Source: a virus. From it: 64,000 bases of DNA. Where the stretch lies: IMG/VR virus record IMGVR_UViG_3300049988_000024, positions 1-64,000 of that record; one strand, written 5' to 3'. Shown here piece after piece: positions 577 through 43,820 of the stretch (positions are counted from its first letter, which is position 1; each line of letters starts with the position of its first letter). The notes under the pieces are model-generated. The model ran no database searches. It was not told the origin of the DNA and saw only the letters and a list, made by a program, of their open reading frames with translations. Position numbers and translations under genes: made by a program.

Positions 577-605
577 GTTATAAGCGATCCCGTCGTGCCT
601 GTCAA
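577..605 (-). promoter_or_regulatory. sigma70-type promoter for the leftward operon
   Basis: Minus strand TTGACA (600-605), 17 nt, TATAAC (577-582), about 25 nt upstream of the AGGAGG/ATG at 552. Confidence 0.65.
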
Positions 606-606
606 G

Positions 607-835
607 CCTATACGGCAGCTATACGGATTTCCGGTTTCCAGGCGAAAAGCGTATAGGCTAAGTGGTTGAAATTGATTGATTATTTTTCTAGATATACCAT
701 ATTCTTTCTCTTTTCTAAAAGTATATAAAAAAGAAGAGAGGAAGGTAATATGTTAATAAGAAAAGTTTCTGGTTTCACACGAAAAGTGGTATAGCGCGAA
801 AATAAGTTGTTTTGTTTCAATAAGTTAGCGTATAC
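607..835 (+). repeat. 229-bp composite element, copy 1 (six GCTATAC-type boxes plus AT-rich dyad core)
   Basis: Boxes at 607, 618, 651 (complement), 693, 789 (complement) and 829. The same offsets occur in the copies at 23869-24097 and 43592-43820 (inverted). Confidence 0.9.
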
Positions 836-847
836 GGATTAGTGGGC

Positions 848-876
848 TTGTCTTTTGTGGCGCGCTGGTGTATATG
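848..876 (+). promoter_or_regulatory. candidate sigma70-type promoter for the rightward early genes
   Basis: TTGTCT (848-853), 17 nt, TATATG (871-876), 12 nt after the repeat element and 36 nt before the ATG at 912. Confidence 0.4.
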
Positions 877-12045: not shown

Positions 12046-14181
12046 ATGGCACCCATTCAAGCGCCCCTAGTGGGCGCTATTTTTGTCCCTGTAAGGTCAT
12101 CATACATGCTTCAGACCACCGTTGAATTCGACACCCGCGCCACCTTGGCGGAATCCAAGTTTCTGGAATCCTATAGCCGCCTCAAGCCCGACAATACCTA
12201 TGAAACGTGGGACGATTCGGTTGAGCGCGTCATGCGGATGCACCGCGAAAAGTACGCGGATCGCATGACCTACGAGCTTGATGGGTACATGCGCGAGGCC
12301 GAAGACAGTTACAAGCGCAAAGCGTTTTTGGGATCGCAGCGCGCCCTTCAGTTCGGAGGGGCGGAAATCCTGCGCAAGAACGCGCGAATGTATAATTGCA
12401 CGGCGTCCTATGCGGATCGGCCGCGCTTCTTCGCGGAAACCTTCTGGCTTCTCCTGTGCGGCTGCGGCGTCGGCTTCAGTGTGCAAACGCAGCACATCGC
12501 CAAGTTGCCGGTTGTTCAAGAACCTACGGGGCGCCCGATCGTTCATATCGTCGCAGACAGCATCGAAGGATGGGCCGATGCGGCACAAGCGCTATTCGAT
12601 AGCTACTTCCGTGGCACGCCACCCGTCAAGTTTAACTTTGATCTGGTTCGCGAAAAGGGCGCCTTCATTTCGGGCGGCTTCAAGGCCCCTGGCCCGGAGC
12701 CATTGCGCAAGGCACTCGATAAGATTCGCCCGATCCTGGATGCTGCTATCGGTCGCCAGATGGCCGATATCGAGGTTTACGATTGCGTCATGCACCTCAG
12801 TGACGCCGTTCTGTCAGGCGGTGTCCGACGCGCGGCCACGATTTGCATTTTCTCCAAGACTTCGGAGGCGATGCTGAAGGCCAAGACCGGCAACTGGTTT
12901 GTGGAGAACCCGCAGCGTGGGCGTTCCAATAACTCGGTTGCGCTTCTCCGGTCTGAAACCACATGGGAAGAGTTCTCTGCGATCATGCGGAGCGTGGAAC
13001 AGTTCGGCGAACCGGGCTTTGTGTTCTTGGATGACCTAGACCACCTGTTCAACCCATGCGTTGAAGTGGGTATGAAGGGCAAGACGGAAGACGGCGTTTC
13101 TGGTTGGCAGGGTTGCAACCTTTGCGAGATTTCCGGCGCTTATTGCACAACTGAAGAGCTTTTCTTTGAAGCCTGCCGGTCTGCCGCTATCATGGGCACA
13201 TTGCAGGCGGGTTACACGGACTTCGCTTATCTTGGCGAGGCGTCGGAACGGATTTTCCGTCGCGAAGCCCTGCTTGGCGTTTCCATTACAGGCTTCATGA
13301 ATTCGCCGGATATCTTGCTGAACGCGGACACGCTGCGGCGCGGGGCTGAGATCGTTAAGGAAACCAACCGCGAAGTCGCGGCGCTGATCGGCATCAATCC
13401 TGCGGCCCGTTGCACCGTTGTGAAGCCTTCCGGCAATGCGTCGGTTCTTCTTCAAACGGCTTCTTCGACGCAAGGCGAACACGCTAAGCGCTACCTTCGC
13501 AATGTCCAATACAACGCCCTGAACGAGGTTCCGCAGCTTATCCAGGCGACTAACCCGGCAATGGTGGAACGTTCCGTTTGGTCGCAGAATGAGACGGATG
13601 TGGTTATCTCCTATCCTATCACGCCGCCGAAGTCGTCCCGGTTCCGGCAGGATATCATGGGCGTTCGGCAGCTAGAAATCGTCCGCATGATTCAAGAGAA
13701 CTGGATCGAAGGCGGAAAGAACGCTGAGCTTTGCGTTGACGAGTCGTTGTCGCACAACGTCAGCAATACGATTACGGTCGATAATTGGGCTGATGTCGCG
13801 CGCTACGTGTACGACAACCGATTTACGTTTGCGGGTATCTCGTTTCTTGCCTATAGTGGTGACCGTGACTATGCGCAGGCACCTTTTACGGAAGTCTTGT
13901 TGGCGGATGAGATTCGCCGGAAGCATGGGCTGAACTGGCGGTTATTTGATGAGGTCTTTGAGGACGTAAATTATAACGTTGCTATTCGCCGGAAGCCTTG
14001 GCACGAGCTAAGCTTGCTCGAAAAGGATTGCTTGATCCTTGGGAAGTGGAATGCCATTCAAGAAACCTATGTGCCGATTGATTGGCGGGACCTGAAAACA
14101 AAGGACTACACGGATATTGATCAATTAGGGGCAATGGCTTGCAACGTTGATCCATTGACAGGAGTTTCAAACTGTGCTTGA
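12046..14181 (+). CDS. ribonucleotide reductase, class II-like (monomeric RTPR/NrdJ-like)
   Basis: 711 aa. GCGVGFSV, VLSGGVRRAA, RGRSNNSV, FGEPGFVF, NPCVE...CNLCEI and TVVKPSGN line up with RNR catalytic-core motifs. Start uncertain (alternative ATG at 12106). Confidence 0.75.
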   Translation: MAPIQAPLVGAIFVPVRSSYMLQTTVEFDTRATLAESKFLESYSRLKPDNTYETWDDSVERVMRMHREKYADRMTYELDGYMREAEDSYKRKAFLGSQRALQFGGAEILRKNARMYNCTASYADRPRFFAETFWLLLCGCGVGFSVQTQHIAKLPVVQEPTGRPIVHIVADSIEGWADAAQALFDSYFRGTPPVKFNFDLVREKGAFISGGFKAPGPEPLRKALDKIRPILDAAIGRQMADIEVYDCVMHLSDAVLSGGVRRAATICIFSKTSEAMLKAKTGNWFVENPQRGRSNNSVALLRSETTWEEFSAIMRSVEQFGEPGFVFLDDLDHLFNPCVEVGMKGKTEDGVSGWQGCNLCEISGAYCTTEELFFEACRSAAIMGTLQAGYTDFAYLGEASERIFRREALLGVSITGFMNSPDILLNADTLRRGAEIVKETNREVAALIGINPAARCTVVKPSGNASVLLQTASSTQGEHAKRYLRNVQYNALNEVPQLIQATNPAMVERSVWSQNETDVVISYPITPPKSSRFRQDIMGVRQLEIVRMIQENWIEGGKNAELCVDESLSHNVSNTITVDNWADVARYVYDNRFTFAGISFLAYSGDRDYAQAPFTEVLLADEIRRKHGLNWRLFDEVFEDVNYNVAIRRKPWHELSLLEKDCLILGKWNAIQETYVPIDWRDLKTKDYTDIDQLGAMACNVDPLTGVSNCA

Positions 14182-14701
14182 AGTTTGGAAACAGGTAATT
14201 GGATATGAAGATTCTTATGAGGTTTCAAGCATAGGAAGGGTGCGGTCGATTGACCGCACGGTTAGTTGCAATACAGGAACAAGAGTTGTTCCGGGAGTTT
14301 TTCTAAAGCTAAATCCTCACAATAGAACTGGACATCCGCGCGTTTCGCTTTCACGTAAAAGAAAGATGACTTCTTTCTTTGTCCACACACTCATGATGCG
14401 CGCTTTTGTTGGTGAAAGACCAAAAGGATATCATATTTGCCATAACGATGGGGATTCAAGCAACAATCGATTAGATAATTTGCGATATGATACGCCTAAA
14501 GCAAATAGCCGTGATAAAATTATTCATGGAACAATTGCAAAAATGGAAAGGAACGGTTTCGCAAAATTAAATTCGGAAGAGGTAGAAAAGATTCGAGGCT
14601 TTAGAAAAGAGGGCAGAACACTCAAATCAATCTCAATTGAATTTGATACTTGTATTAGCAACGTAGCTAAGATATGTAATCACGAAACGTGGACAGGTTA
14701 G
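14174..14701 (+). CDS. HNH homing endonuclease (NUMOD4 + HNH_3-like)
   Basis: WKQVIGYEDSYEVSSIGRVRS and ICHNDGDSSNNRLDNLRYDT. AT-rich; overlaps the RNR stop. Confidence 0.8.
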   Translation: MLEVWKQVIGYEDSYEVSSIGRVRSIDRTVSCNTGTRVVPGVFLKLNPHNRTGHPRVSLSRKRKMTSFFVHTLMMRAFVGERPKGYHICHNDGDSSNNRLDNLRYDTPKANSRDKIIHGTIAKMERNGFAKLNSEEVEKIRGFRKEGRTLKSISIEFDTCISNVAKICNHETWTG

Positions 14702-18126: not shown

Positions 18127-18449
18127 ACATTGAACAAGCAAAAGCAGCGGCAGGACGACGAATTGCGGAAACGCGGCGACGGATCGAAACTGATTTGCCT
18201 GCATTTCTAGCTGAGATTGCGGAGCGACATAACAACGCAACTCAAGATCGATATGATTCATGGGAAGCCCGTAACGATCCGCTAACCGTTCGCGTCGCAA
18301 AGGCACTGTGTGCGGCTGGTTTTCATGATTGGCCGGTTGCGCGCGACGGGGTTTCGGCGTACAACGCCTTATCGGAGCGGCGCTATTGGATGCAGCTAGC
18401 GGAAGCCGCTATACGGGAGATAGGACATGACCAAGGATCAATTCGCTGA
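18123..18449 (+). CDS. hypothetical protein
   Basis: ORF track. GTG start after GGAGG. Confidence 0.55.
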   Translation: MNIEQAKAAAGRRIAETRRRIETDLPAFLAEIAERHNNATQDRYDSWEARNDPLTVRVAKALCAAGFHDWPVARDGVSAYNALSERRYWMQLAEAAIREIGHDQGSIR

Positions 18450-21631: not shown

Positions 21632-23869
21632 ATGGCGCAAATCGAATCATACGCAGATATTCCAGAGGTCAACGCATACGTCAAACGCCACGGGGCACAG
21701 TTCCGTTCGGCGTCGAAGGCGGTTGTAGAGGAGAAGGTTGGAGAGTATTTTCGCGAGGTCGCCAAGATCAAGTTCTCGCGCGATGGGACCGTCAAGGCAA
21801 CACCTGGATACGAACCGGATGAAGCGGAAGGCGAGCGGATCGCGTTCGCTATTCGCAATGGGCAGTGGCCTGTCTGGCGCATGGCAACGGAAGCGGATGA
21901 GCCGCCCGACGCCGTGAAGCGGGCACTAGCCGAGAACCCTGACGACGTGTTTGCTTATCGCGATGTGACCGGCAAGCGCATATACATGTATCAGGTTCGA
22001 TACATGACCAAGAAGGGCAAGCGGTCCTATCATGCGTGGACCATCTACGAGGACAACGTTTGGCGTCCATGGGAACCGGATACGGAGCATCTACCGCTCT
22101 ACGGCCTGGAAACGCTGAAGGACAACAGCGTTGCGATCATCCATGAAGGCGCCAAGGCCGCTCGGGCGATGCAACGCATGATCGCACAAAAGACGGCGAA
22201 AGACAAGCGCCTGTTCGAGAATCATCCATGGGCGCAAGAGCTTTCGTTCGCGGCTCATGTGGCGTTCACGGCGGGCGCATTTGCTGCCAAGGACACCGAA
22301 TGGGAGATGTTGCGCCGTAACGGGATCGAAAGCGTCATCATCATTCCCGACAATGACGAGGCGGGACGGTCCGCTGTTCGCGACATCAGCAAGGCGGTCG
22401 GGTTGCCCGCGAAGTGGGTTCAATTCGATTCGCGGTTCCCGTCGTCGTTCGATATGGCTGACCCAATGCCGGAGGCGTTGTTCGTGGAAGCGGACGGGAA
22501 GAAGCATTGGAAGGGGCCGACGTTCGGAGAACTGATTACGCCTTGCACATGGGCGACACGGTTGATTCCGAACCCCGACAAGCCGGAAAAGATGATCGCG
22601 ACGCTGAACAGGGCGTTTCAACGGGAATGGTTCTATGTCGGGCAAACAGGGTTGTTCGCTTGGCGGCACGATCCGCGCATTCGCTACAACGAAACCAGCT
22701 TTAATGCCAATATGCGGCGCTGTTCTGATGTGAAGGACACGGCGGCGCTTGTGTTACAGGGTTTGACGGATAGTATCGACAAGCTGACGTATCGCCCCGA
22801 CTTGCGGTCGCAGAATGGCGATCGGCGCGTGAACGAGGGAATCGGCGAAACGGCGCTGAACACCTATTCGCCAACCAATGTCAAGGCCATACCGGGCGAC
22901 GTGACGATGTGGCACGAGTTCCTGGCACATCTGATACCCGATGAATCCGAACGCAAGCTTGTGGAGCGGTGGATCGCAACAGTTGTTGCGCGGCCAGCAA
23001 CACGAATGCGTTATGCGATGCTTCTGACCTCAGCCATGCAAGGAACCGGCAAGACCACGCTTTGCGAAGCGGTGTTGCGTCCGCTTGTTGGCAAACAGAA
23101 CTACAATGCCGTCACCGAAGACACGATCATGAACCCGCAGTTCAACGACTGGTTTGTTGAAAAGACGCTGGTTGTCGTGAATGAGTTCTACCAGAACAAG
23201 ACTAATCGCGCAGGAAACAAACTGAAAAGCGTGATTTCCGACGATATTGCGATGGTGAACACGAAGTATTTGGTTCCCTATGCTATCCGCAATCACGCGC
23301 ATTTGATTGCTTGTTCTAACACGGCTGTCGCGGTCGGAATCGAGGACTCGGATCGTCGTTGGCTTATTCCGACGTGTACGGAAGAAGCCTGGAAGTGGTC
23401 GGATAAGTTCTATCGCTGGTTGCATAGCGGTGGCTTGGAAGCGATCAAGCATTGGGCGGATACCTACGGTGATTACGTGACCACGGGCGAGCGGGCGCCG
23501 GATACCAAGGCCAAGCGCATGATCGTGGAGGAATCGCGCACGCCTCGCTGTCAGGAGGCTTATAACCTTTGGCGGGCTTTGGAGGAGCAAGGGGCGGAAC
23601 GGTCGATATCGCAGCGCAGGCTGAACAATTGGCTGCGCGGGTTCGATGCGGGCTATGCCAAGGATAAGGACGTAGACTATCGAAAAGCGATCCTGGAAGC
23701 GGGCGGATCGATCCTGGATGAGCGCATGAGCATCGACGGACGACCTCAGTATGTGATGGTCACTTCGGCTTTGAAGGCAAAGATGCAACAGTTGGATAAT
23801 GAATTGCGGCGAAAACTTGTTCGTGAATCGCTGCTTTGTGACGAAGATATGGCCAATCCGACCATCTAG
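21632..23869 (+). CDS. primase-helicase (Toprim-type primase fused to SF3 / P4-alpha, D5-like helicase)
   Basis: 745 aa. Toprim-like IHEGAKAARA...VIIIPDNDEAGRSA; Walker A SAMQGTGKTT; Walker B LVVVNEF; SF3-like IACSN. Confidence 0.8.
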   Translation: MAQIESYADIPEVNAYVKRHGAQFRSASKAVVEEKVGEYFREVAKIKFSRDGTVKATPGYEPDEAEGERIAFAIRNGQWPVWRMATEADEPPDAVKRALAENPDDVFAYRDVTGKRIYMYQVRYMTKKGKRSYHAWTIYEDNVWRPWEPDTEHLPLYGLETLKDNSVAIIHEGAKAARAMQRMIAQKTAKDKRLFENHPWAQELSFAAHVAFTAGAFAAKDTEWEMLRRNGIESVIIIPDNDEAGRSAVRDISKAVGLPAKWVQFDSRFPSSFDMADPMPEALFVEADGKKHWKGPTFGELITPCTWATRLIPNPDKPEKMIATLNRAFQREWFYVGQTGLFAWRHDPRIRYNETSFNANMRRCSDVKDTAALVLQGLTDSIDKLTYRPDLRSQNGDRRVNEGIGETALNTYSPTNVKAIPGDVTMWHEFLAHLIPDESERKLVERWIATVVARPATRMRYAMLLTSAMQGTGKTTLCEAVLRPLVGKQNYNAVTEDTIMNPQFNDWFVEKTLVVVNEFYQNKTNRAGNKLKSVISDDIAMVNTKYLVPYAIRNHAHLIACSNTAVAVGIEDSDRRWLIPTCTEEAWKWSDKFYRWLHSGGLEAIKHWADTYGDYVTTGERAPDTKAKRMIVEESRTPRCQEAYNLWRALEEQGAERSISQRRLNNWLRGFDAGYAKDKDVDYRKAILEAGGSILDERMSIDGRPQYVMVTSALKAKMQQLDNELRRKLVRESLLCDEDMANPTI

Positions 23870-24097
23870 CTATACGAGTGCTATACGGAAAACAGGGGCT
23901 TCGGAAAATTTGGTATAGCGTAAGCCCTTGATTTTCCTATCTTTTATTTCTTACTATACCACTTTTCTTCTTCTAATAGAAAGTATATAGAAAAATAATA
24001 AGGGTAATAATATCATCAGTTAAAAAGTTTTAGGTTTCACCCGAAATTCCGTATAGCTGTTCGTGAAAGCCCTATGAATCAAGGGTTTGAGCTATAC
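23869..24097 (+). repeat. 229-bp composite element, copy 2
   Basis: Boxes at 23869, 23880, 23913 (complement), 23955, 24051 (complement) and 24091, the same offsets as copy 1. The first box overlaps the primase-helicase TAG. Confidence 0.9.
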
Positions 24098-24119
24098 ATG
24101 TCCTGAAAGGAGCTTCTTT

Positions 24120-24533
24120 TTGCCTACGGAAACGGACTATAAACGGGCTTTTAGGGCCTCTTGCGGCGGTTGGACCAGTGCTGTTGAGCCTGGAAGGGGC
24201 GGCGATAGCGGCGCGGCTGACTTGCTGGTGCTGGTTGGACAGCGCATTGTGCCCGTGGAACTGAAGATCGGCCAGCTTGGCGACGATGGCTTGTTTTGCT
24301 TCCATAAGCCGGGGATACGGCCAGCGCAGATCAGTTGGCACTTCGAATTGGCGAAGGCGGGCGGGTTCAGTCTTTTGGCCGGTGGACATTGGATGGACGG
24401 CTGGTGGCAAACCTATGTCTTTGAGGCTGCGAATTTGAGCGGTTGGCGTGATGGCCTTGTGCCGATTGCGGACACGGAACACGAATCCTTGGTCGAGTTG
24501 CTCCCTTGGTTGGTTGATGTCTGGGTCAGTTAA
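24120..24533 (+). CDS. VRR-NUC / PD-(D/E)xK nuclease-like protein
   Basis: ORF track 24087..24533. In-frame TTG at 24120 sits 7 nt after AAAGGAG. AADLLVLVGQRIVPVELK...RPAQISWHFELAKAGG fits D...ExK...Q..W. Confidence 0.55.
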   Translation: MPTETDYKRAFRASCGGWTSAVEPGRGGDSGAADLLVLVGQRIVPVELKIGQLGDDGLFCFHKPGIRPAQISWHFELAKAGGFSLLAGGHWMDGWWQTYVFEAANLSGWRDGLVPIADTEHESLVELLPWLVDVWVS

Positions 24534-25085: not shown

Positions 25086-25168
25086 AAATCGCGTCAGCGG
25101 GCTTGTATGGCCGAATACGGGGCTATTGGACGTGATATGGTGGGTTGGGATTGCAGTGGGCAAAGAAA

Positions 25169-25186
25169 AAGGCCCCGGAGGGCCTT
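25169..25186. terminator. bidirectional hairpin terminator between convergent genes
   Basis: AAGGCCC-CGGA-GGGCCTT, flanked by an A-run on one side and a T-run on the other. Confidence 0.65.
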
Positions 25187-25192
25187 AATTTT

Positions 25193-25396
25193 TCATGTAT
25201 CGGTCAACATGCGAGCGGCCTGATTCATCGCTTCTCTCTTAGTTTGAGCGAAATTGATAAACACGCTCGGATTCCATTTTCCCATCACGCGCCACCGAAA
25301 GCCGTCATAGAACTGCGCCTTTTCCACCGTAACCTTATGCTTGCCTTGCACGATCTCGTACTTGCCTGCGGCTATGCGATGTGACTTCAGGTTCAT
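25193..25396 (-). CDS. hypothetical protein (67 aa)
   Basis: ORF track 25193..25468. ATG at 25396 after AGGAGAG. Confidence 0.6.
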   Translation of the reverse strand: MNLKSHRIAAGKYEIVQGKHKVTVEKAQFYDGFRWRVMGKWNPSVFINFAQTKREAMNQAARMLTDT

Positions 25397-25463
25397 GACT
25401 GCGCTCTCCTGTTTTGGCCTAGCTCCTTGGGGCGTCGTGCCGGTTTCGATAAACACAGCCTGC

Positions 25464-25493
25464 GACATATCGCCTTAGCCGTCAAGCGGTCAA
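25464..25493 (-). promoter_or_regulatory. candidate promoter for the 25396 gene
   Basis: Minus strand TTGACC (25488-25493), 18 nt, TATGTC (25464-25469). Confidence 0.35.
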
Positions 25494-25521
25494 ATCACGT
25501 TTTTGTAAATTATTTTTGGGC

Positions 25522-25550
25522 TTGACAAACGTAATGAAATAGCTTATAAT
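25522..25550 (+). promoter_or_regulatory. perfect consensus sigma70 promoter with upstream A/T tract
   Basis: TTGACA (25522-25527), 17 nt, TATAAT (25545-25550). TTTTGTAAATTATTTTT at 25501-25517 resembles an UP element. Confidence 0.8.
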
Positions 25551-25556
25551 CATGAG

Positions 25557-26102
25557 CATAACTCGCCAAAGCCTCTCCCAACGCATTGTCGGTTCTACTT
25601 GCATTGCCCTGGTCGAGTCTTAAAGGCCAAAGCGCGAGTCTCCTGCCTCCGCATGAAGCGTATAGAGGCGGGCGCGACTAGACGGGCTGCTTCTCTCCCG
25701 GTTCGTCTAGTCCTCAGTTTGAATTGGGTGCGATGCTGGAAAACGCCTAGCCATTTGGTTTTAGTGAGGTGCTTCGGCTGCTGTTCCCAATAATGCCAAT
25801 CGTGCCAGAACCCCGTGGCAAGGGCACGACAACCGCTTGAGTCTTGCGTAATGCTGACGAGGTTGAAAGGGGTGTTACAACTGGCGAAAGCCATGCGCCG
25901 CGAATGGCGCACTTATTCGATGTCTACAGGGGTCATCGACCCTTAGGCAGAGACGTTCTGAGCGTCTAGCCTTAGCCGCTTTGTGAAGGCGGCTAGAAAT
26001 TGCTTAGTGGCCAATGCTTAGCTTCGGTTGTGGCAGACACTAGGCTTGAGGCGGGATCACATCGGCTGCAAGCTGCGATCTTGACAGGACGCCCGCCTTT
26101 TT
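25557..26102 (+). ncRNA. candidate large structured non-coding RNA (about 550 nt)
   Basis: No credible ORF on either strand. Many hairpins: 25676-25684/25704-25712 (9 bp), 25800-25806/25823-25829, GAAA tetraloop 25882-25893, 25894-25911, 25973-25979/25989-25995. The terminal stem 26050-26055/26092-26097 is followed by TTTTT. Confidence 0.45.
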
Positions 26103-26108
26103 GAATTT

Positions 26109-26184
26109 CTGGGTGTAGCTCAGTTGGTAGAGTCCCGCGTTTGGAGCGCGGTTGTCGTTGGTTCGAGTCCAGCCACCTAGACCA
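26109..26184 (+). tRNA. tRNA-Pro (anticodon TGG) with encoded CCA
   Basis: Hand-folded cloverleaf: acceptor CTGGGTG/CACCTAG, D arm GCTC..GAGT, anticodon arm CCGCG-TTTGGAG-CGCGG, T arm GTTGG-TTCGAGT-CCAGC, then A-CCA. Confidence 0.85.
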
Positions 26185-26290
26185 TTTTGAGTGGGAGTGA
26201 TGAGGAACGCTAACCCAGAAGCGTCTAAGTCTAGGGGTAGAAGCTATGTTTGGGTTGAATAGCACAATGCAACCGCCCCGCTCAATTCAA

Positions 26291-26401
26291 ATCAGGACGT
26301 ACACGGCCCGGTAACGGTGTCCGTCTTCGCGGGAGACTCCGATCAGACCCGCTTGCATATAGAGCCCGCTGACTTTCGGATAGAGCGGGTTCCGTCCTGA
26401 T
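26291..26401 (+). other. structured leader element upstream of terS
   Basis: 9-bp closing helix ATCAGGACG (26291-26299) / CGTCCTGAT (26393-26401). Two alternative left arms (ACCCGCT 26347-26353, GCCCGCT 26364-26370) compete for AGCGGGT (26384-26390). Confidence 0.4.
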
Positions 26402-26472
26402 ATCATCGTTCAACTATAATGAACAATCGAGTTAATTGTCAATTATTTTACGATATAAGCCAAGGAGGCCAA

Positions 26473-26895
26473 ATGTCTGAGGATAACCCGGTTGGGCGTC
26501 CTTCGCTCTTTAGGGAAGAATACGGCGATGTCATTATTGAATGGATGGACAAGGGTTTTAGTCTTACGGCGGCTGCATCACGTCTAGATGTTAGCCGCCA
26601 AACTGTTTACAATTGGGTAGACGAACACCCCGAATTCGCAGCCAAGGTGAAGATAGCTCAATCAAAGCGCCAGTTCTTCCTTGAGAATCGCCTACTGAAG
26701 GCGACTGAAGGCCCGGTCGTCACCTCTTCCATCTTCGCCCTCAAGAACGCCGCCCCCGCCGATTGGCTAGAGAAGACCCATACAGAGGTCACGGGCAAGG
26801 ACGGCGGGCCGATAGAGTCTAAGCAGTCGCTTGACATCACGGGCCTATCCGATGCGGTACTAGAAGAACTGCTTTCGAAGTTGGGGCAAAAGTAA
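26473..26895 (+). CDS. terS: terminase small subunit
   Basis: ORF track 26419..26895. ATG at 26473 after AGGAGG. GRPSLFREEYGDVIIEWMDKGFSLTAAASRLDVSRQTVYNWVDEHPEF is a typical TerS HTH N-terminus. Confidence 0.8.
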   Translation: MSEDNPVGRPSLFREEYGDVIIEWMDKGFSLTAAASRLDVSRQTVYNWVDEHPEFAAKVKIAQSKRQFFLENRLLKATEGPVVTSSIFALKNAAPADWLEKTHTEVTGKDGGPIESKQSLDITGLSDAVLEELLSKLGQK

Positions 26896-26913
26896 AGGGC
26901 CGTAAAGGCCCTT
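26895..26913. terminator. bidirectional hairpin between terS and the antisense cassette
   Basis: AAGGGCC-GTAAA-GGCCCTT. Confidence 0.55.
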
Positions 26914-27115
26914 AATTACTTCCTAGAAGTCTCAAGCTTTCTGGGATTTCAAGATCAAAAACAGGGTCAAGCTCTACCCCTCCTCCCTCAAAAGACCAAG
27001 CGTCCCACCCTCGTGTCTTAATTCCTAGCATAGCTAGTTTCGAAAATTGATAGAAATCTTCTCTTTCGAATGAAGATCGTGGATCAATTAGACATGTTGC
27101 TTTGTAGTATGCCAT
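26912..27115 (-). CDS. hypothetical protein (cassette A, gene A1)
   Basis: ORF track. AT-rich; GGAGAG RBS; own promoter. Confidence 0.6.
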   Translation of the reverse strand: MAYYKATCLIDPRSSFEREDFYQFSKLAMLGIKTRGWDAWSFEGGGVELDPVFDLEIPESLRLLGSN

Positions 27116-27141
27116 CTCATCTCTCCGTTCTCAACACCCAC

Positions 27142-27170
27142 AACATAGCCCGTGGTTTGGGGCTTGTCAA
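27142..27170 (-). promoter_or_regulatory. promoter of A1
   Basis: Minus strand TTGACA (27165-27170), 17 nt, TATGTT (27142-27147). The A2 TGA stop (27167-27169) lies inside the -35. Confidence 0.55.
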
Positions 27171-27370
27171 CTAGAAATATTGTCTTCTTTGGTTGGGCTT
27201 ACAGTTCCAACGATACGTTTCTGTGTATAGTATTCATTTGGAACACAATCGTACTTACCGCGCTTGAATTCAATGATCTTGTAAGGCTCTTTCATTGTAT
27301 CGGCCCAAGCTTGCGCTTTTGCGAATGCCCACGCTTCCGAGCATGGTTTGAGAGAAAGAAAATAGCTCAT
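27167..27370 (-). CDS. hypothetical protein (A2)
   Basis: ORF track. Confidence 0.6.
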   Translation of the reverse strand: MSYFLSLKPCSEAWAFAKAQAWADTMKEPYKIIEFKRGKYDCVPNEYYTQKRIVGTVSPTKEDNISS

Positions 27371-27523
27371 TTAAGCCACCTTCTTAAGAAGAAAAATTTC
27401 AATCGAAGCATCAGCCGTGTAAATTTCGGCAAGCTGCGCAATGATATCCTGACGATCAATTGCGTATGTTTCCATAAACTTGGAAACGCCGTCGATGTAT
27501 GCCATGAAAGCGAACTTGGACAT
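27371..27523 (-). CDS. hypothetical small protein (A3, 50 aa)
   Basis: ORF track 27371..27697. Internal ATG at 27523 after CGGAG (MSKFAFMAYIDG...). Confidence 0.5.
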   Translation of the reverse strand: MSKFAFMAYIDGVSKFMETYAIDRQDIIAQLAEIYTADASIEIFLLKKVA

Positions 27524-27547
27524 CTGCTTGCTCCGTTTCGATGATTG

Positions 27548-27576
27548 ATATTCGCACACGGCCGAAACCCTGTCAA
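27548..27576 (-). promoter_or_regulatory. promoter of A3-A2
   Basis: Minus strand TTGACA (27571-27576), 17 nt, GAATAT (27548-27553). The A4 TGA stop (27573-27575) lies inside the -35. Confidence 0.5.
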
Positions 27577-27842
27577 CAAGAATCCGCAATCTCTCGCGAT
27601 TTAATTTCGGCATATTCTTCAACGGCCAGAACGTACAATCCCCAATCCGTCCGCTTTCGCCCTGGCCAAACCGATGCCTTCTCAAATCCCATACCACGCT
27701 CTAGAGCATATTCCTGAGCCTTCTCGATGAAGGCAAAGAAGTCCCAAGTCGGTGGCAAAGGATCGCCTTCCACCAGCCCTTTTGACCGGAGGAAGGCGCG
27801 ATAAAAATCGGTGTAAACCGAAAGCTCTTCGACTCTCTTCAT
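27573..27842 (-). CDS. hypothetical protein (A4)
   Basis: ORF track 27573..27854. ATGA overlap at 27842. Confidence 0.6.
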   Translation of the reverse strand: MKRVEELSVYTDFYRAFLRSKGLVEGDPLPPTWDFFAFIEKAQEYALERGMGFEKASVWPGRKRTDWGLYVLAVEEYAEIKSREIADSC

Positions 27843-28033
27843 GCAACCATCCACATCGAACCGTTCTTGGTGATCAGGCCCTTCTCAGAAGCCATACGGA
27901 AAGCAGCCGAGTAAGCAGCGCGGGTGTGCGAGACGTTGAAGTAGGAAGCGACGAACCAAGACTGACCGGCGTTGATGGCGTCCACGATCTCGTTAAAGCA
28001 GACTTCGACAGAGGGGTTGAGGTTGCGGGCCAT
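27839..28033 (-). CDS. hypothetical protein (A5)
   Basis: ORF track; AGGAA RBS. Confidence 0.6.
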   Translation of the reverse strand: MARNLNPSVEVCFNEIVDAINAGQSWFVASYFNVSHTRAAYSAAFRMASEKGLITKNGSMWMVA

Positions 28034-28070
28034 TTGCTTCGTTCCTGTGTTTGTCCGTTTCGATGATCAA

Positions 28071-28099
28071 GTTATAGCCCTACCCCAAATCCCTGTCAA
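28071..28099 (-). promoter_or_regulatory. promoter of A5-A4
   Basis: Minus strand TTGACA (28094-28099), 17 nt, TATAAC (28071-28076). Confidence 0.6.
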
Positions 28100-28145
28100 C
28101 CACTTTCTCGCATCCAACGCAAAATAATCAGAAGGACCAGACCCC

Positions 28146-28220
28146 ATGTCCATCGAACGAATCCTAGGCATCTGCATTCTCGTAATCTTGGTCGTATGGC
28201 TGGCGACAAGGGTTCTGTAG
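28146..28220 (+). CDS. possible 24-aa hydrophobic peptide on the opposite strand
   Basis: Hand-found: MSIERILGICILVILVVWLATRVL, between the A5 promoter and the A6 terminator. No clear RBS. Confidence 0.25.
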   Translation: MSIERILGICILVILVVWLATRVL

Positions 28221-28229
28221 GCAAAGGAA

Positions 28230-28248
28230 AAGGGGCTTAGCGCCCCTT
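28230..28248 (-). terminator. rho-independent terminator of the A9-A6 unit
   Basis: Minus strand AAGGGGC-GCTAA-GCCCCTT followed by TTTCCTTTG. Confidence 0.6.
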
Positions 28249-28629
28249 AACCATTTTATACGTAACGCCTTGGCTTTCAAATAGGCGGGTTGCCCAATCG
28301 CCGTCTAGCGGGTTGAAGCCTGTCATCGAGCCTTCTGCGATGAGGCCGCGTACAAGCTTTAGGCCGCTAACAAGGGCGTCCCGCTCAGCGGTCAGGGATT
28401 CGATTTCAAGCGCATCTCGCTCTGAATCAGAACAGAGCTTTTCCCAACCCTGCATGGTCGCATCCATGTTGGCGAACTCTTCGTTAAGCCGACGCTTCAA
28501 CTCGTCGCGTTCAGCCGTCAGGGATTCGATTTCCTCAGCCGCTTCCTTAATGACGCCCCGCAAATTGCCAGGATGAGCGTTTTCGTACAGCGTCCATTCG
28601 CGAAGTTTATCGGCGAAAGTCTTTTCCAT
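28237..28629 (-). CDS. coiled-coil protein with internal EIESLTAERD(E/A)L repeat (A6)
   Basis: ORF track 28237..28668. ATG at 28629 after GGGAGAAAAG. Confidence 0.6.
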   Translation of the reverse strand: MEKTFADKLREWTLYENAHPGNLRGVIKEAAEEIESLTAERDELKRRLNEEFANMDATMQGWEKLCSDSERDALEIESLTAERDALVSGLKLVRGLIAEGSMTGFNPLDGDWATRLFESQGVTYKMVKGR

Positions 28630-28802
28630 CACTTTTCTCCCGTCTTCGGCACCGCCACCATCTCGCAAGCATACACGTTATGCTGACGGGCGCAATCGCG
28701 GAGCTTGCGTTCATACTTGTTAGGTGATCCAAAAATCAAGATCGCAAGCCCAAACCCAATTATCAGGGAGCCGACCCCGACAAGTGCTAGAGACTTCATC
28801 AT
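28629..28802 (-). CDS. small membrane protein (A7, 57 aa)
   Basis: Hand-found. GGAGGAAGGACG then ATGATG at 28802 (MMKSLALVGVGSLIIGFGLAILIFG...). Confidence 0.5.
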   Translation of the reverse strand: MMKSLALVGVGSLIIGFGLAILIFGSPNKYERKLRDCARQHNVYACEMVAVPKTGEK

Positions 28803-28927
28803 CGTCCTTCCTCCACAACATACCCACGCGCCACCAAGAACGCACGGGCTTCGTCTAGCATGTGGGTGGGCAAGCTGTAAACGCCTTGGAACTTGCGGCC
28901 GGGTTGGGTGAAGCGGATGGTGATCAT
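28799..28927 (-). CDS. hypothetical small protein (A8)
   Basis: ORF track 28799..28987. The longer form overlaps A9, so the ATG at 28927 is preferred (MITIRFTQPGRKF...). Start uncertain. Confidence 0.4.
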   Translation of the reverse strand: MITIRFTQPGRKFQGVYSLPTHMLDEARAFLVARGYVVEEGR

Positions 28928-28946
28928 TTGTAAAATACCTTGTTGA

Positions 28947-29156
28947 TTAGATTTCGAGTTCGCGCAGGAAAACGCGATCGTTTGCAATTTTTCGAATTTC
29001 AGCAGCTAGCTCAAAGTCGCGCTCAGCCAACATCTCGGAAACAGTGTTTGCATTATCACCAAAAGGTGCAACATGCTTGGAGTTGGATGCGGTGTTTGCG
29101 CCCTCAATTATAAGAGCGGCACGATTCAAGATTTGGTTCATTTGTAAGCGGTTCAT
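28947..29156 (-). CDS. hypothetical protein (A9)
   Basis: ORF track; AGGAGA RBS. Confidence 0.6.
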   Translation of the reverse strand: MNRLQMNQILNRAALIIEGANTASNSKHVAPFGDNANTVSEMLAERDFELAAEIRKIANDRVFLRELEI

Positions 29157-29182
29157 CGTCTTTCTCCTACGGTTCCCCGTTA

Positions 29183-29211
29183 CGTGTAGCTGAGGATGGG
29201 TTGGGTGTCAA
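29183..29211 (-). promoter_or_regulatory. promoter of A9-A6
   Basis: Minus strand TTGACA (29206-29211), 17 nt, TACACG (29183-29188). The A10 TGA stop (29208-29210) lies inside the -35. Confidence 0.45.
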
Positions 29212-29450
29212 GTACCGTAAAAATCAGAATTTTCGCGAATTGAATATGTTGCTGGATTTCCGTTGCCATCTATAAAAGAAATCTCAATCTTTTCGGATGT
29301 CACGCGCTTGACGGTCAAGTCCTTAATGCGGGTATTGATGCACTTTGAAACAACAAAACCGCTCGCTGTCTCCAGATCATTTGCGGTTATAGCCCAAGCT
29401 GTTGTGAAAGGCAACTTAGATGGCACAGCTTCAATGATAAAGGTCTTCAT
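29208..29450 (-). CDS. hypothetical protein (A10)
   Basis: ORF track 29208..29477. ATG at 29450 after AGGAG. Confidence 0.6.
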   Translation of the reverse strand: MKTFIIEAVPSKLPFTTAWAITANDLETASGFVVSKCINTRIKDLTVKRVTSEKIEISFIDGNGNPATYSIRENSDFYGT

Positions 29451-29476
29451 CTCTCTTCTCCTTTGTCCACAATCCA

Positions 29477-29505
29477 TGTGTAGCGGGTTTGGGGTGGGTG
29501 GTCAA
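29477..29505 (-). promoter_or_regulatory. promoter of A10
   Basis: Minus strand TTGACC (29500-29505), 17 nt, TACACA (29477-29482). The A11 TGA stop (29502-29504) lies inside the -35. Confidence 0.45.
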
Positions 29506-29771
29506 TCGCTTTTCTTCGGCAATCTAGCTTCTGGCCAGCCGAGTTTAGCGCACCAAACGGTTCGCGCTTCTAGATAGCGCCAAGGAAATTCATCACCGCA
29601 ATTTCTAACATAGTCGTCTTCCCAACGCAGCGCAGTTATCTCCCAAGCCTTTGCGCGATATTCTCCTTTGCCTAGCAGCATATCGCAAGCTCTTTCGTGG
29701 GCCTCCGCTCGGAAGCGGAGGAGGGTTTCGTATTTGTGTCGGGCGTAGATTTCATCCATTCCTTCGATCAT
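29502..29771 (-). CDS. hypothetical protein (A11)
   Basis: ORF track. Confidence 0.6.
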   Translation of the reverse strand: MIEGMDEIYARHKYETLLRFRAEAHERACDMLLGKGEYRAKAWEITALRWEDDYVRNCGDEFPWRYLEARTVWCAKLGWPEARLPKKSD

Positions 29772-29914
29772 GCCACGATCTCGCGAGTCTCGATTTCGAT
29801 AAGCTGGCAGGAGTAGAAACCGCCAAATTCGCGCATCCGAAAACCATGAGCGCGGGGAACGATGCGGATTTCAACGGCGCTGTTGTGGTTGTCCTGAGTG
29901 TGCATTTCGATCAT
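29768..29914 (-). CDS. hypothetical small protein (A12, 48 aa)
   Basis: Hand-found. ACGGAGCAAACAA then ATG at 29914. ATGA overlap with A11. Confidence 0.45.
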   Translation of the reverse strand: MIEMHTQDNHNSAVEIRIVPRAHGFRMREFGGFYSCQLIEIETREIVA

Positions 29915-29987: not shown

Positions 29988-31457
29988 ATGCCTAAACCCG
30001 CATCTATTCCGCTTAGTCGCCTACCGAGCGTCGATCAGATCGAAACCGAGCTTAGCCGTCGCCATTGTCAGCGCTCGTTCCGCGAGTTCGCTAAGCAGGC
30101 TTGGCATGTCATCGAACCGTCCACCTCGCTCAAATGGAATTGGGCGATGGACGCTATCTGCGATCACCTCCAAGCCGTCCACGAAGGTCACATCAAGCGC
30201 CTCCTGATGAACGTGCCTCCTGGTACGTCTAAATCGACGCTGACGGGCGTTCTCTATCCGGCTTGGGTGTGGACGCAAGACCCTTCGAAACGCTTCCTAG
30301 GGACGGCCCATAAGGCTGAGCTTGCGCACCGAGACAATCTGAAGTGCCGTCGTATCATTCAGTCCGAATGGTATCAGAAGCGTTGGAAGATCGAACTGAC
30401 GGGCGATGCTAACCGCACAACCAAATTCGAGAACACAAAGACCGGCTTTCGCGAATCGATGGCCTTTACTGGCATGACGGGTTCCCGTGGCGACTGCGTG
30501 ATTCTTGACGATCCGATTAGCGCGGGCAATTCAAATAGCGAAGCCGAGCTTTACAAGGCCGAAATCGAGTTCACGGAAACGCTGCCAACGCGCGTCAACA
30601 ATGACGAATCGGCCATTATCGTCGTGATGCAGCGGCTTAACGAACGTGATACGTCTGGTCTCATCCTGAGCCGCGATCTTGGATACGAACACTTGATGTT
30701 GCCTATGCGCTTTGAGCCTGAGCGCAAGTGTTATACTTCGATTGGCTTTGGAGACCCGCGCACCGAAGAAGGCGAATTGCTCTTTCCTGAGCGCTTCCCT
30801 GAATCACAGGTCGCAAGCCTAGAGAAGACGATGGGATCGTTCGGCGCGGCTGGCCAGTTGCAGCAACGGCCTATTCCGCGTGGTGGTGGACTCTTTCAGC
30901 GATCTTGGTTCAATCCGATCCGAGAAGTGCCGCAGGGCACACGCTTCTTCCGAGGATGGGACTTAGCCGCTTCCACTAGTGCTACTTCGGCCTATACCGC
31001 AGGCGTCAAGCTTGGCCTTACGCCAGAAGGCCGGATCGTTATTGCCCATGCTATCCGTGACCGCATGACGGCTGGCAAGGTCATTGCAACTATTCGCGCA
31101 ACGGCTATGGCCGATACTGAGAAAACAAAGCTATCGATCCCGCAAGACCCTGGCCAAGCGGGCAAGGCTCAAAAGGAAGGATTCGCGCAACAGCTTCGTG
31201 AGTTCAATGTGCATTTCTCGCCTGAGTCTGGCGACAAGGTGACGCGCGCCGAACCTTTCGCGGCACAAGCCGAAGCCGGTCTTGTGGATATCGTCGTTGG
31301 CGAGTGGACAGACGCCTATCTAGACGAGATTTCAACGTTCCCGAATGGATCGTATCTCGATCAGGTAGACGCGACTTCGCGCGCCTACCATTTGTTGTTG
31401 CGGGAAACAGCAAAACCAAAAGCGACTATCGGCTGGGGTCCGAAGTTGGTTAGTTAA
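29988..31457 (+). CDS. terL: terminase large subunit
   Basis: ORF track 29973..31457 (ATG at 29988 preferred over GTG at 29973). Walker A-like NVPPGTSKST; VILDDP Walker B; C-terminal nuclease-like half. Length and N-terminus are typical of TerL. Confidence 0.85.
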   Translation: MPKPASIPLSRLPSVDQIETELSRRHCQRSFREFAKQAWHVIEPSTSLKWNWAMDAICDHLQAVHEGHIKRLLMNVPPGTSKSTLTGVLYPAWVWTQDPSKRFLGTAHKAELAHRDNLKCRRIIQSEWYQKRWKIELTGDANRTTKFENTKTGFRESMAFTGMTGSRGDCVILDDPISAGNSNSEAELYKAEIEFTETLPTRVNNDESAIIVVMQRLNERDTSGLILSRDLGYEHLMLPMRFEPERKCYTSIGFGDPRTEEGELLFPERFPESQVASLEKTMGSFGAAGQLQQRPIPRGGGLFQRSWFNPIREVPQGTRFFRGWDLAASTSATSAYTAGVKLGLTPEGRIVIAHAIRDRMTAGKVIATIRATAMADTEKTKLSIPQDPGQAGKAQKEGFAQQLREFNVHFSPESGDKVTRAEPFAAQAEAGLVDIVVGEWTDAYLDEISTFPNGSYLDQVDATSRAYHLLLRETAKPKATIGWGPKLVS

Positions 31458-31648
31458 CGCCCACCCTCCACGGCCTGCCGCGCCTGCTCTTCTAGCATTG
31501 CCGTCTGCCACCCGTCAAGCCACCATCGGCCCTCGTTGGATGGATGCTCGTAAGGACATTCTGTCCAATCCTTGCCATCGCGAAAGGCGTCTTCGCCCGC
31601 GTTCTCTAGGGCAAGGCGGGTAAGGTTTGGTTTAGTGTTCATGATCAA
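31454..31648 (-). CDS. Rmf / CrpP-family small protein (B1)
   Basis: DGKDWTECPYEHPSNEGRWWLDGWQTAM parallels E. coli Rmf ...SKEMCPYQTLNQRSQWLGGWREAM. Confidence 0.6.
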   Translation of the reverse strand: MIMNTKPNLTRLALENAGEDAFRDGKDWTECPYEHPSNEGRWWLDGWQTAMLEEQARQAVEGGR

Positions 31649-31886
31649 TCTCCGGCTGAATCATTCTTGGGTAGGCACTTCGCACGTCACAGTTAGGTCG
31701 CGGAATTACAATCAAAACGTAGTCTGAGCCCCGCGACGAAATCCCCGGCATCGAGCCATTTTCGCGAATGATTTCGTCGCGGTTAATTTCATGCCAACCA
31801 TCATGCGTTGGACGCGGAAACCGGCCTTCGCCTTCGTATTTCCATTTACCACCGGGCTTGAAATAATAGAAATCGCAGTCGTTCAT
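31632..31886 (-). CDS. hypothetical protein (B2)
   Basis: ORF track. Confidence 0.6.
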   Translation of the reverse strand: MNDCDFYYFKPGGKWKYEGEGRFPRPTHDGWHEINRDEIIRENGSMPGISSRGSDYVLIVIPRPNCDVRSAYPRMIQPEIDHEH

Positions 31887-31887
31887 C

Positions 31888-32163
31888 CTATTCTCCTTCC
31901 CCTACCGGCCTCGTATAGCGCTCTAGGCACTTGCGAGCAAGCGGCTGTACATATGGCACACCATTCTCAGCAACAAGATACCCGATACCCCGGCGCGGCC
32001 AAGCGAGCTTCGCGTATCCGACAATCTCGATCTTAGCTCCTTCCGCGAGAATGTCAAGCTGGTTCTTATCGCGGCAAAAGTCTTCGAAGATCGGTATCTC
32101 CACCACAAAACGGTCGCCTCGCTTGAACCGCAGTTCGGCATCGTACTCAGCGTCGGTTTTCAT
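31888..32163 (-). CDS. hypothetical protein (B3)
   Basis: ORF track 31888..32238. ATGA overlap at 32163. Confidence 0.55.
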   Translation of the reverse strand: MKTDAEYDAELRFKRGDRFVVEIPIFEDFCRDKNQLDILAEGAKIEIVGYAKLAWPRRGIGYLVAENGVPYVQPLARKCLERYTRPVGEGE

Positions 32164-32354
32164 CGATCCGTAACCACTTGTTGTAGGTTGCGTCCTGCGG
32201 TCGTGATGTCTTCTAGCGTTGCATCGCGCCACAAACAAATGGCGCGAAAGTTGATATCGTCTCCGATATACTCCTCGACTTGAAGCACGATTGCGGGCGG
32301 CTTATCGGGCTCCAGAACGACATTCCTGAAACGGCTTCGTCCGGTTAGGCTCAT
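32160..32354 (-). CDS. hypothetical protein (B4)
   Basis: ORF track 32160..32450. ATGA overlap at 32354. Confidence 0.55.
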   Translation of the reverse strand: MSLTGRSRFRNVVLEPDKPPAIVLQVEEYIGDDINFRAICLWRDATLEDITTAGRNLQQVVTDR

Positions 32355-32584: not shown

Positions 32585-32592
32585 CAAACCTC

Positions 32593-32796: not shown

Positions 32797-32797
32797 T

Positions 32798-33016: not shown

Positions 33017-33017
33017 C

Positions 33018-33330: not shown

Positions 33331-33359
33331 TTGACTTTCGAATAACAATCATGTATAAT
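33331..33359 (+). promoter_or_regulatory. consensus sigma70-type promoter for the portal gene
   Basis: TTGACT (33331-33336), 17 nt, TATAAT (33354-33359). Confidence 0.75.
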
Positions 33360-33384
33360 TCGCGCTTTACCGAGGAAATACGAT

Positions 33385-43582: not shown

Positions 43583-43591
43583 TCCAGACTT

Positions 43592-43820
43592 GTATAGCTT
43601 AAACTATTGATTTTGTTGGTTCTTTTTCGGAGCTATACGGGTTTTTGAGTGAAAGTGAAAAGTTTTTAAACTGATATTACTACTACCCTTTCTCTTTTTT
43701 ATATACTTTATAAAAGAGAGAAGAATATGGTATAGCTAAAAAAATAAGATAACAAAAACAACAGCTTAAGCTATACGCAATTTGAAATCAGACCCCAAAT
43801 CCGTATAGCCTTCGTATAGC
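43592..43820 (-). repeat. 229-bp composite element, copy 3 (inverted)
   Basis: The reverse complement aligns with copies 1 and 2. Boxes at the same offsets counted from 43820 (43820, 43809, 43776, 43734, 43638, 43598). Confidence 0.9.

Follow-up and report, generated by a model that had tools for sequence, protein, structure and literature searches.

Inverted iterons around pyrimidine/purine cores, one set directly behind the primase-helicase gene: three putative replication sites in a 66-kb phage genome

In the Staphylococcus aureus pathogenicity islands (SaPI) and other phage-inducible chromosomal islands (PICI) the replication origin lies immediately 3' of the rep gene and contains two oppositely oriented sets of iterons around an AT-rich region. 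The iterons are read by the C-terminal winged-helix domain of Rep, and the pri-rep-ori segment suffices for plasmid replication (PMC6092414; PMC9371898). For the archaeal plasmid pRN1, too, DNA downstream of the primase-helicase gene is required (PMC4234260). Phage SPP1 carries a second origin copy (oriR) in its late region; oriL and oriR have a similar organisation, i.e. repeats and an AT-rich unwinding element, and are bound by one initiator, one of them lying in the replication gene region and the other in a long intergenic gap within the virion-assembly genes (PMC6316719). The subject of this work is a 64,000-nucleotide stretch, positions 1 to 64,000 of the IMG/VR virus record IMGVR_UViG_3300049988_000024 (hereafter the window), taken out of a circularly assembled contig of 66,430 bp. 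Directly behind its gene for a primase-helicase of 745 aa (21632..23869, + strand, stop codon TAG at 23867-23869) begins an element of short inverted boxes around an AT-rich core, and this element occurs in three copies. To our knowledge, origins of tailed phages with fused primase-helicases are almost entirely unmapped. We put the probability at about 0.6 that each element is a cis-acting replication site, composed of iterons and an unwinding core and recognised by the phage's self-loading primase-helicase; the phage probably carries three origin-type sites rather than one.

Copy 2 of the element, the one behind the helicase gene (23869..24104, + strand), consists of boxes A1 (23869-23877), A2 (23880-23893), B (23905-23919, minus orientation), C (23953-23967), D (24043-24057, minus) and E (24091-24104). 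Its first box, GCTATACGA, begins on the G of the helicase TAG, an overlap already noticed in the first-pass annotation of this DNA, and is followed by GCTATAC boxes at 23880 (+), 23913 (-), 24051 (-) and 24091 (+). That annotation let the element end at 24097, which is right for the last GCTATAC but too short for the extended box, reaching ~24104. Copy 1 (607..842, + strand) has A1 at 607-615, A2 at 618-631, B at 644-657 (-), C at 691-705, the centre at 716-733, D at 781-795 (-) and E at 828-842. Copy 3 (43584..43820, - strand) is inverted, i.e. in window coordinates it runs from E (43584-43598) through D (43632-43646), the centre (43694-43709), C (43722-43736), B (43770-43784) and A2 (43796-43809) to A1 (43812-43820). 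With copy 3 reverse-complemented, the three copies can be aligned end to end at a mean column identity of 77%, and a profile search of the whole 66.4-kb genome finds exactly three copies. GCTATAC occurs 15 times in the window as opposed to 2.9 expected, a number reached in none of 100 shuffles, and 13 of the 15 occurrences fall in three stretches of ~235 bp. The sequence GCTATACGG is found 23 times with at most one mismatch (8.4 expected), and all nine occurrences of the extended box NNTATAC-N3-4-TTYY are within the elements. Written as an oligonucleotide, the box sequence is GCTATACGGATTTC. Two isolated boxes, at 18408-18416 (GCTATACGG, +) and 31911-31919 (GCTATACGA, -), lie in gene-dense DNA called as coding, have no partner boxes and are probably due to chance.

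The anatomy of the element was read from an alignment of 11 copies, from this phage and its close relatives. Each element has five to six boxes of ~13 bp that resemble TATAC-N3-TTTTC and are placed in alternating orientation on both sides of the core. Their order is A (+), B (-), C (+), centre, D (-), E (+), and in the window lineage A is present twice, 11 bp apart; A1, A2, B and C stand to the left of the core and D and E to the right, and A2/D, B/E and C/D form inverted pairs. Box A, GCTATACGGATTT, is nearly invariant. The core has a G+C content of 24-27% (window ~51%), and within it a pyrimidine run gives way to a purine run around AGTATATA, the two runs being divided by the centre AAAGTATATAAAAA. 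In copy 2 the pyrimidine run is at ~23960-23975, the centre AAAGTATATAGAAAAA at 23980-23995, and the purine-rich run continues to ~24010. The three centres are among the four top pyrimidine-to-purine switch points of the 64 kb (score 40/50, tied with position 61389). The three cores are also the three least stable duplex stretches of the 64 kb at lengths of both 60 bp and 100 bp (~-62 kcal/mol vs a mean of -86.7, standard deviation 5.8), and copy 2 holds the least stable 60-bp stretch of the whole window.

The distances between the boxes are nearly constant over the 11 copies: 31-32 for A2-B, 39-41 for B-C, 29-30 for C-centre, 68-69 for centre-D and 41-42 for D-E. The sole departures are +10, +12 and +11 bp, each about one helical turn. 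Fixed spacing together with indels of a helical turn argues for a phased protein-DNA assembly on duplex DNA, and not for a constraint from coding, RNA or promoter spacing; the spacing points to a protein-binding array that acts at the level of DNA. The consensus of the integration host factor (IHF), WATCAANNNNTTR, is matched seven times as compared to 2.6 expected, and three of the seven matches are in elements, with one-mismatch versions in other arms; copy 2 has matches at 23921-23933 (-) and 24077-24089 (+). We regard the IHF sites as a lead only. Inspection of the elements by eye found no conserved DnaA or CtrA boxes. A scan of viral contigs with the DNA pattern TATACCA-N19-22-AGTATATA returned 119 chance matches, none of them homologous by nhmmer.

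The decisive support for a role in replication is comparative, as inverted iterons are seen directly behind most of the distant helicase homologues. Homologues of 30-53% identity were located on their own contigs. In L197, where the helicase is 32% identical, there are 10 exact AGTGGCCA boxes in both orientations (0.56 expected), and all 10 lie within ~310 bp directly behind the helicase stop, around a pyrimidine/purine centre. Behind the stop in L214 stands GATCGGGGATCGGG, then a purine tract, then CCCGATCCCCGATC; in L215 it is GTTTCGGTTTCGG, then TATATAG and a CT tract, then CCGAAACCGAAAC. Quasi-palindromic elements directly behind the helicase gene are found in L208, L211 and L212, and in L197, L208 and L212 the spot behind the helicase is the strongest pyrimidine-to-purine switch of the locus. 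All in all, an origin-like element stands immediately 3' of the helicase open reading frame in the window and in L001, L002, L194, L208, L197, L214 and L215. The box sequences behind homologous helicases are unrelated between lineages; what recurs, in phages and in satellite-like islands, is the position and the architecture. The islands themselves were also inspected. L197:6077-16620 contains HNH, capsid, portal, helicase, iterons and integrase; L215:7854-15072 contains int, a gene for an AlpA-like helix-turn-helix (HTH) protein, ProQ, helicase, iterons and TerS; and L214:158-8447 has an integrase and a helicase homologue. The three small islands are located in bacterial contigs and look like PICI-type satellites, and they possibly come from Alphaproteobacteria, the named homologues being from Neoroseomonas and Sphingomicrobium.

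The elements are also conserved within the immediate clade. A 66-kb relative (helicase 80%, capsid 92% identity) has all three copies too, with positions and relative orientations unchanged, its orthologue of copy 1 being L200:19164-19422. Orthologues of copy 2 follow the helicase stop in L001, L002, L194 and L208, and orthologues of copy 3, likewise inverted, are present in L127, L128, L129 and L130. The elements are only 53-56% identical between both genomes and 55-69% identical within one genome, and this low overall identity indicates that the bases they do share are constrained. Judged by its capsid, the nearest cultured relative is Rhizobium phage RHEph19, whose head/tail junction is closed, without a gap. 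Nor were extra copies found in the ~20 kb searched of the distant relatives L197, L211 and L212, and the triplication is thus, as far as seen, confined to this clade. On the circle the copies are separated by arcs of 35/30/35% (window genome) and 31/32/37% (relative), with P ~0.01 for random placement. Such even spacing is compatible with multiple firing origins but could simply reflect module boundaries.

One might ask whether such elements are a selfish or neutral repeat similar to miniature inverted-repeat transposable elements (MITE), or else a packaging (pac-like) array, and in either case unrelated to replication. In favour of this, the elements are short, AT-rich, non-coding and multi-copy, they occur in both orientations, the site of copy 3 is closed in the nearest cultured relative, and P1-type pac sites are hexamer sets around a centre as well. 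However, no target-site duplications or terminal inverted repeats are present, and A and E, the two boxes at the outer ends, repeat each other in direct orientation. Genomes that are saturated in unconstrained bases still agree in the positions and orientations of the copies, the three sites are syntenic in relatives, and the internal boxes and their spacing are constrained. Three pac sites would moreover be unprecedented, and TerS is 2.4 kb away from the nearest element copy. We rejected the transposable element, and of all the explanations discussed in this work we give this one the slimmest chance.

It is useful to compare the helicase and its 3' element to the SaPI/PICI replicons (SaPIbov1, SaPI1, SaPI5 PriRep5, EcCICFT073). 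Firstly, a primase and a self-loading SF3 (superfamily 3)-type helicase are fused or adjacent in these islands, and in the phage they are parts of one protein. Secondly, the element is 3' of the gene in both, with opposite-pointing iterons, at least two per side, on both sides of an AT-rich region. Thirdly, three islands that have an integrase and this very layout encode homologues of the window helicase. The differences are equally clear. Unlike a satellite, the phage has a genome of 66.4 kb that codes for a polymerase, a terminase, capsid and tail proteins of its own, and an integrase was not seen among its genes; it has three dispersed copies of the element, not one; its boxes, at ~13 bp, are longer, and those on one side of the core point in alternating directions; its core is a switch from a pyrimidine run to a purine run; and there is no PDB sequence match to the SaPI Rep structures. 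By analogy, the phage system would work like a pri-rep-ori replicon, but it is not a PICI.

Satellite phage P4 offers a second comparison. The P4 alpha protein unites a Toprim primase, an SF3 helicase and a C-terminal DNA-binding domain in one protein of ~750 aa, as in the predicted architecture of the phage helicase, and two distinct loci of the annotated P4 record contain 8-bp repeats of either orientation. Of these loci, crr (the cis-replication region) is directly 3' of alpha, which can be compared to copy 2, and ori is in the divergent ORF88/sid control region, which can be compared to copy 1. Both systems thus have a short repeat that recurs in either orientation at two loci or more, of which one lies 3' of the helicase gene. 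P4 differs in that ori and crr are structurally unlike each other, whereas the phage loci are full-length paralogues, and in that its loci are 4.5 kb apart as opposed to 20-23 kb in the phage. The helicases are only remotely related, in the helicase core and not over all domains (BLASTP E 0.06; hhalign E 3.9e-4, probability 36%). The first-pass annotation had proposed a multi-locus analogue of P4 ori and crr bound by this helicase; the layout it had in mind is supported by the iterons of the homologues and by the P4 record, but at the level of the protein family the analogy is weak. The origin copy of SPP1 among virion-assembly genes recalls copy 3 (PMC6316719); unlike the phage, SPP1 has an initiator, gp38, that is separate from its DnaB-type helicase gp40 and loader, its repeats are direct, and it has two copies rather than three.

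The primase-helicase itself has a Toprim-like N-terminal half, an SF3/NrS-1-type core and a C-terminal domain of ~110 aa. The DUF5906 match is clear (8.5e-19) and the Toprim_2 match is weak (3.5e-4, below the curated cut-off), and the Toprim hallmarks E172 and D240xD242 are invariant across 28 homologues. A PDB search with the helicase matches only the NrS-1 helicase. The last ~136 residues diverge faster than the rest, being 56/42/32% identical to three homologues as compared to 79/53/41% at full length. An AlphaFold2 model of the C-terminal domain (pLDDT 88) has the order helix-helix-strand-helix-helix-wing; its top PDB matches are all winged-helix proteins and its BFVD matches are the C-termini of other phage primase-helicases, all of them weak. 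The model is suggestive of a winged-helix-like domain. A fold search with the C-terminal domain did not retrieve the DNA-binding domains of P4 and SaPI.

The following mechanism is conceivable. The fast-evolving, winged-helix-like C-terminal domain would read the boxes, and hexamers would form on either flank and melt the core. The Toprim domain would then prime on the pyrimidine-rich template strands, giving purine-rich primers that diverge from the centre and that the phage DNA polymerase would extend. Copy 2 is, from its position and architecture, the putative cognate origin of the helicase. It would be ancestral, with copies 1 and 3 keeping the full architecture, and at copy 1 binding of the helicase beside the -35 box may also modulate the two flanking early promoters. 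Copies 1 and 3 are dispersed paralogues and would serve as additional origins or, in the manner of P4 crr or SPP1 oriR, as auxiliary sites. Provided that the elements are replication sites at all, we favour helicase loading at all three copies over a single origin with two auxiliary sites, so copies 1 and 3 most likely load the helicase too, giving three evenly spaced origins. A bolder proposal, which we consider doubtful, is that these evenly spaced, concertedly evolving helicase-loading elements all fire and make this a true three-replicon phage genome. The pyrimidine/purine core and a strand-specific hairpin of the B and E arms would then form a new melting and priming mechanism of Toprim-SF3 primase-helicases, common to phages and alphaproteobacterial satellites, and the copy between the early promoters would be an early-transcription switch as well.

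Several points weigh against a replication role of the elements. The fold matches of the C-terminal domain are non-significant (E >= 0.2 in PDB, >= 0.005 in BFVD), and a PDB sequence search with the helicase retrieved neither the P4 origin-binding domain nor the SaPI Reps; the homology to P4 alpha is remote, as said above. Among the homologues, L209 (41% identity) has no gap behind the gene, and the element in L210 is weak. The position behind the helicase is the end of the early/replication module, so that on position alone the role may be a regulatory one. Copies 2 and 3 are inside long operons and would be transcribed through, and box A of copy 1 adjoins a -35-like CTTGACA in both genomes, which would suit a transcription factor equally well. 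Finally, cumulative GC skew does not have a three-origin pattern. The skew tracks gene orientation, and we discarded it as an uninformative origin marker. In the early/replication half (1-26000) GC skew is strongly positive, 0.1-0.3, and in the late half (34000-64000) it is near zero, although both halves are transcribed rightward; the two halves have either different histories or different mutational regimes.

The absence of a skew pattern of three active origins would also fit a genome in which a single copy fires, most likely copy 2, or copy 1 by analogy to P4, the other copies being non-firing sites in cis for the helicase or initiator. Such copies could act as crr-like enhancers or looping partners, or like oriR, with a tightly bound initiator stalling the fork and switching theta replication to concatemers. 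There are precedents: P4 crr, 3' of alpha, is a required cis region distinct from ori, and SPP1 oriR, among late genes, binds gp38 and is a proposed site of fork stalling (PMC6316719), and copy 3 is likewise between head and tail genes. Yet the complete architecture (core, centre and spacing) is kept in all three copies of two diverged genomes, which is needless for a mere binding site, and the even spacing suits multiple firing origins better. We think a single firing copy unlikely, though far from negligible.

Transcription is the other process in which a phased array could serve. A phage DNA-binding protein on the boxes might silence early promoters, or insulate, terminate or start transcription at the junctions of modules, and the place of copy 2 behind the helicase gene would then reflect the early/late boundary and not replication. 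Copy 1 is located between divergent early operons. A leftward early promoter (577..605, - strand) can be inferred from the -35 box TTGACA (605-600), a 17-nt spacer and the -10 box TATAAC (582-577), followed by a ribosome-binding site (563-558) and an ATG at 552. It adjoins box A1, and CTTGACA adjoins box A in the relative too; it escaped the consensus scanner, as its -10 box ends in C. A rightward early promoter (848..876, + strand; TTGTCT, 17-nt spacer, TATATG), also unreported by the scanner, would be just outside box E, the first rightward gene starting with an ATG at 912, and L200 has a counterpart, CTTGCG-N18-TAGATA, at the same place. Moreover, GC-rich hairpins are found in the arm beside the upstream gene in some copies, the AT-rich centre has a -10-like TATACT on one strand and TATAAA on the other, and the phage encodes HTH proteins, e.g. 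at 59766-60893.

On the other hand, the scanner found no consistent sigma70-type promoter (-35/-10, 16-18-bp spacing) at an aligned position in the three copies, and canonical promoters elsewhere in the genome have no boxes. Copy 3, an asymmetric element, is inverted relative to its flanking genes, an indel of 11-12 bp separates a conserved TTGA from box C and excludes a -35/-10 relation there, and the positions of the hairpins are not conserved. The same layout is seen behind the helicase in satellite-like islands, where it corresponds to the PICI layout, experimentally an origin. Control of transcription as the sole purpose of the arrays therefore appears distinctly improbable to us.

The surroundings of copy 2 itself were scanned as well. 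The next gene, coding for 137 aa (24120..24533, + strand), has a TTG start at 24120 behind the ribosome-binding site GAAAGGAG at 24106-24113, and an independent gene call agrees with the start assigned previously. Between the last box and this gene a consensus scan found neither a terminator nor a sigma70-like promoter, in line with the earlier failure to recognise a promoter there. The further suggestion that the element carries transcription signals of an unrecognised type found no support, given the canonical promoters elsewhere in the genome, the gene arrays around copies 2 and 3 and the inversion of copy 3. A hidden promoter or terminator was considered and rejected; the scans gave nothing consistent and the GC-rich hairpins of some arms lie at varying positions. 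As copies 2 and 3 sit within long same-strand gene arrays and copy 3 is inverted, read-through transcription is the simpler account for these two copies, with an internal promoter being possible. The arrays end at a terminator-like palindrome near 25.17-25.19 kb (~25165-25195). The head genes, with their stop at 43582, precede copy 3, and the head-closure/tail genes follow it from an ATG at 43833; the element is oriented opposite to both.

The B and E arms form a long-range inverted repeat of 21-23 bp that encloses an AT-rich loop of ~150 nt (644-670 with 816-842 in copy 1, 23905-23934 with 24076-24104 in copy 2, and 43584-43612 with 43760-43784 in copy 3). Standard pairs make up 89.9% of cells as compared to 77.7% in shuffles and 31-45% in slid controls; 11 pairs are changed on both sides (6.0 in shuffles, 2-4 in slid controls); and the covariation is 0.366, against 0.171 in shuffles (reached in 0 of 500) and 0.04-0.08 in slid controls. 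Wobble pairs favour the top strand of the element, and in most copies the duplex is stronger on that strand (-23 to -33 kcal/mol with RNA parameters, window copies). Both arms match the IHF consensus exactly or with one mismatch. The covariation could come from two sites of one protein that evolve together, or from an intrastrand hairpin that forms after the core has melted. The central pyrimidine/purine hairpin is weak and inconsistent (z +0.7 to -2.2).

Pairing and covariation above both controls, and the bias of the wobble pairs to one strand, could also mean that the B/E stem works as single-stranded nucleic acid, i.e. as an RNase III-type processing stalk, a small RNA or a folded single-stranded DNA signal. 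We consider this very improbable. In Rfam only a tRNA was matched, with no match for the elements, and RNAalifold gives a negligible -5.4 kcal/mol over 290 columns, so an RNA gene was rejected. Copy 1 is between outward-facing promoters and copies 2 and 3 would be read on opposite element strands; an RNA role is unlikely, since predicted transcription is absent at copy 1 and on the top strand at copy 2 and the bottom strand at copy 3. Furthermore, indels of one helical turn are a property of duplex DNA, and oppositely oriented arms that bind the same protein covary too. Folded single-stranded DNA, as reported at oriS of herpes simplex virus (HSV), would be compatible with replication sites and would not compete with them. 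HSV has three origin copies per genome, oriS (two copies) and oriL, located between divergent promoters, and boxes of its oriS can pair in an intrastrand hairpin, with which the covarying B/E arms would be comparable. In HSV, SV40 and papillomavirus origins inverted initiator-helicase boxes surround an AT-rich centre, and SF3 helicases form double hexamers. These are, unlike the phage, eukaryotic viruses with unrelated proteins (UL9 is a superfamily 2 helicase).

If the elements are replication sites, a simple rule would hold for this large helicase family: directly 3' of the gene there should be iterons in inverted orientation on both sides of a pyrimidine/purine core. This would tie phage origins to the experimentally defined pri-rep-ori replicons of SaPI/PICI and to P4, and the 66-kb genome has three evenly spaced copies of such a module. 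Should all three copies fire, the phage would be a compact bacterial-virus model of multi-origin replication and a model for the co-evolution of dispersed origins with their initiator; should only one fire, the idea of auxiliary initiator sites, as in crr and oriR, would be extended. In either case binding, plasmid-replication and read-depth experiments could start directly from the three loci.

A few features of the genome and its neighbourhood remain to be described. The contig encodes a DNA polymerase, a ribonucleotide reductase, the primase-helicase, a terminase, a portal, a capsid and a tape measure protein of 1783 aa, and no RNA polymerase or integrase was seen among its genes. No near DNA match to this genome was found among GenBank phages, nor was a close cultured relative found; the best protein matches in cultured or annotated phages are <30% identical for the helicase and ~46% for the capsid. 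No relative turned up in genome contigs, so there is no direct clue to the host. The 137-aa gene is conserved behind helicase and element in relatives and has no family match; a D...ExK-like motif in its sequence suggests a nuclease. Canonical TTGACA-N17-TATAAT promoters are at 25523-25551 and 33332-33360, with leftward ones near 29.97 and 33.30 kb. After the terminator-like palindrome there is a gene-free stretch of 1.08 kb (25396-26473) into which the perfect promoter at 25523-25551 points and which contains a tRNA-Pro(TGG) at 26109-26184. Within it, relatives with ~80% protein identity keep the block 25794-25877 at 94-95% identity; this block gave neither an Rfam match nor a fold signal.

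Two leftward clusters of very small genes (26912-29914 and 31454-33245) stand on either side of the large terminase gene, with divergent sigma70-like promoters at the far end of each, an arrangement shared with RHEph19. In RHEph19 itself (record ~49.6 kb) the strongest duplex-stability outlier of 41 kb, L207:3405-3464 (-62 vs a mean of -90.6 kcal/mol), falls in a gap of 400 bp upstream of the gene for the small terminase and may be an origin or control region of that phage. The long rightward array closes with a gene, 59766-60893, that codes for a 375-aa protein with an N-terminal resolvase/Fis-type HTH and, judged by eye, the metallophosphatase-like motifs GDxxH and GNHDE; it is 85% conserved in the 66-kb relative and 32-46% in more distant phages that do not have the element. 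Finally, two homing-endonuclease-like genes were noted: an HNH-AP2 gene at 63661-64000, in the leftward early operon, which runs past the window end, and a NUMOD4-HNH gene at 14174-14701, directly behind the ribonucleotide reductase gene.

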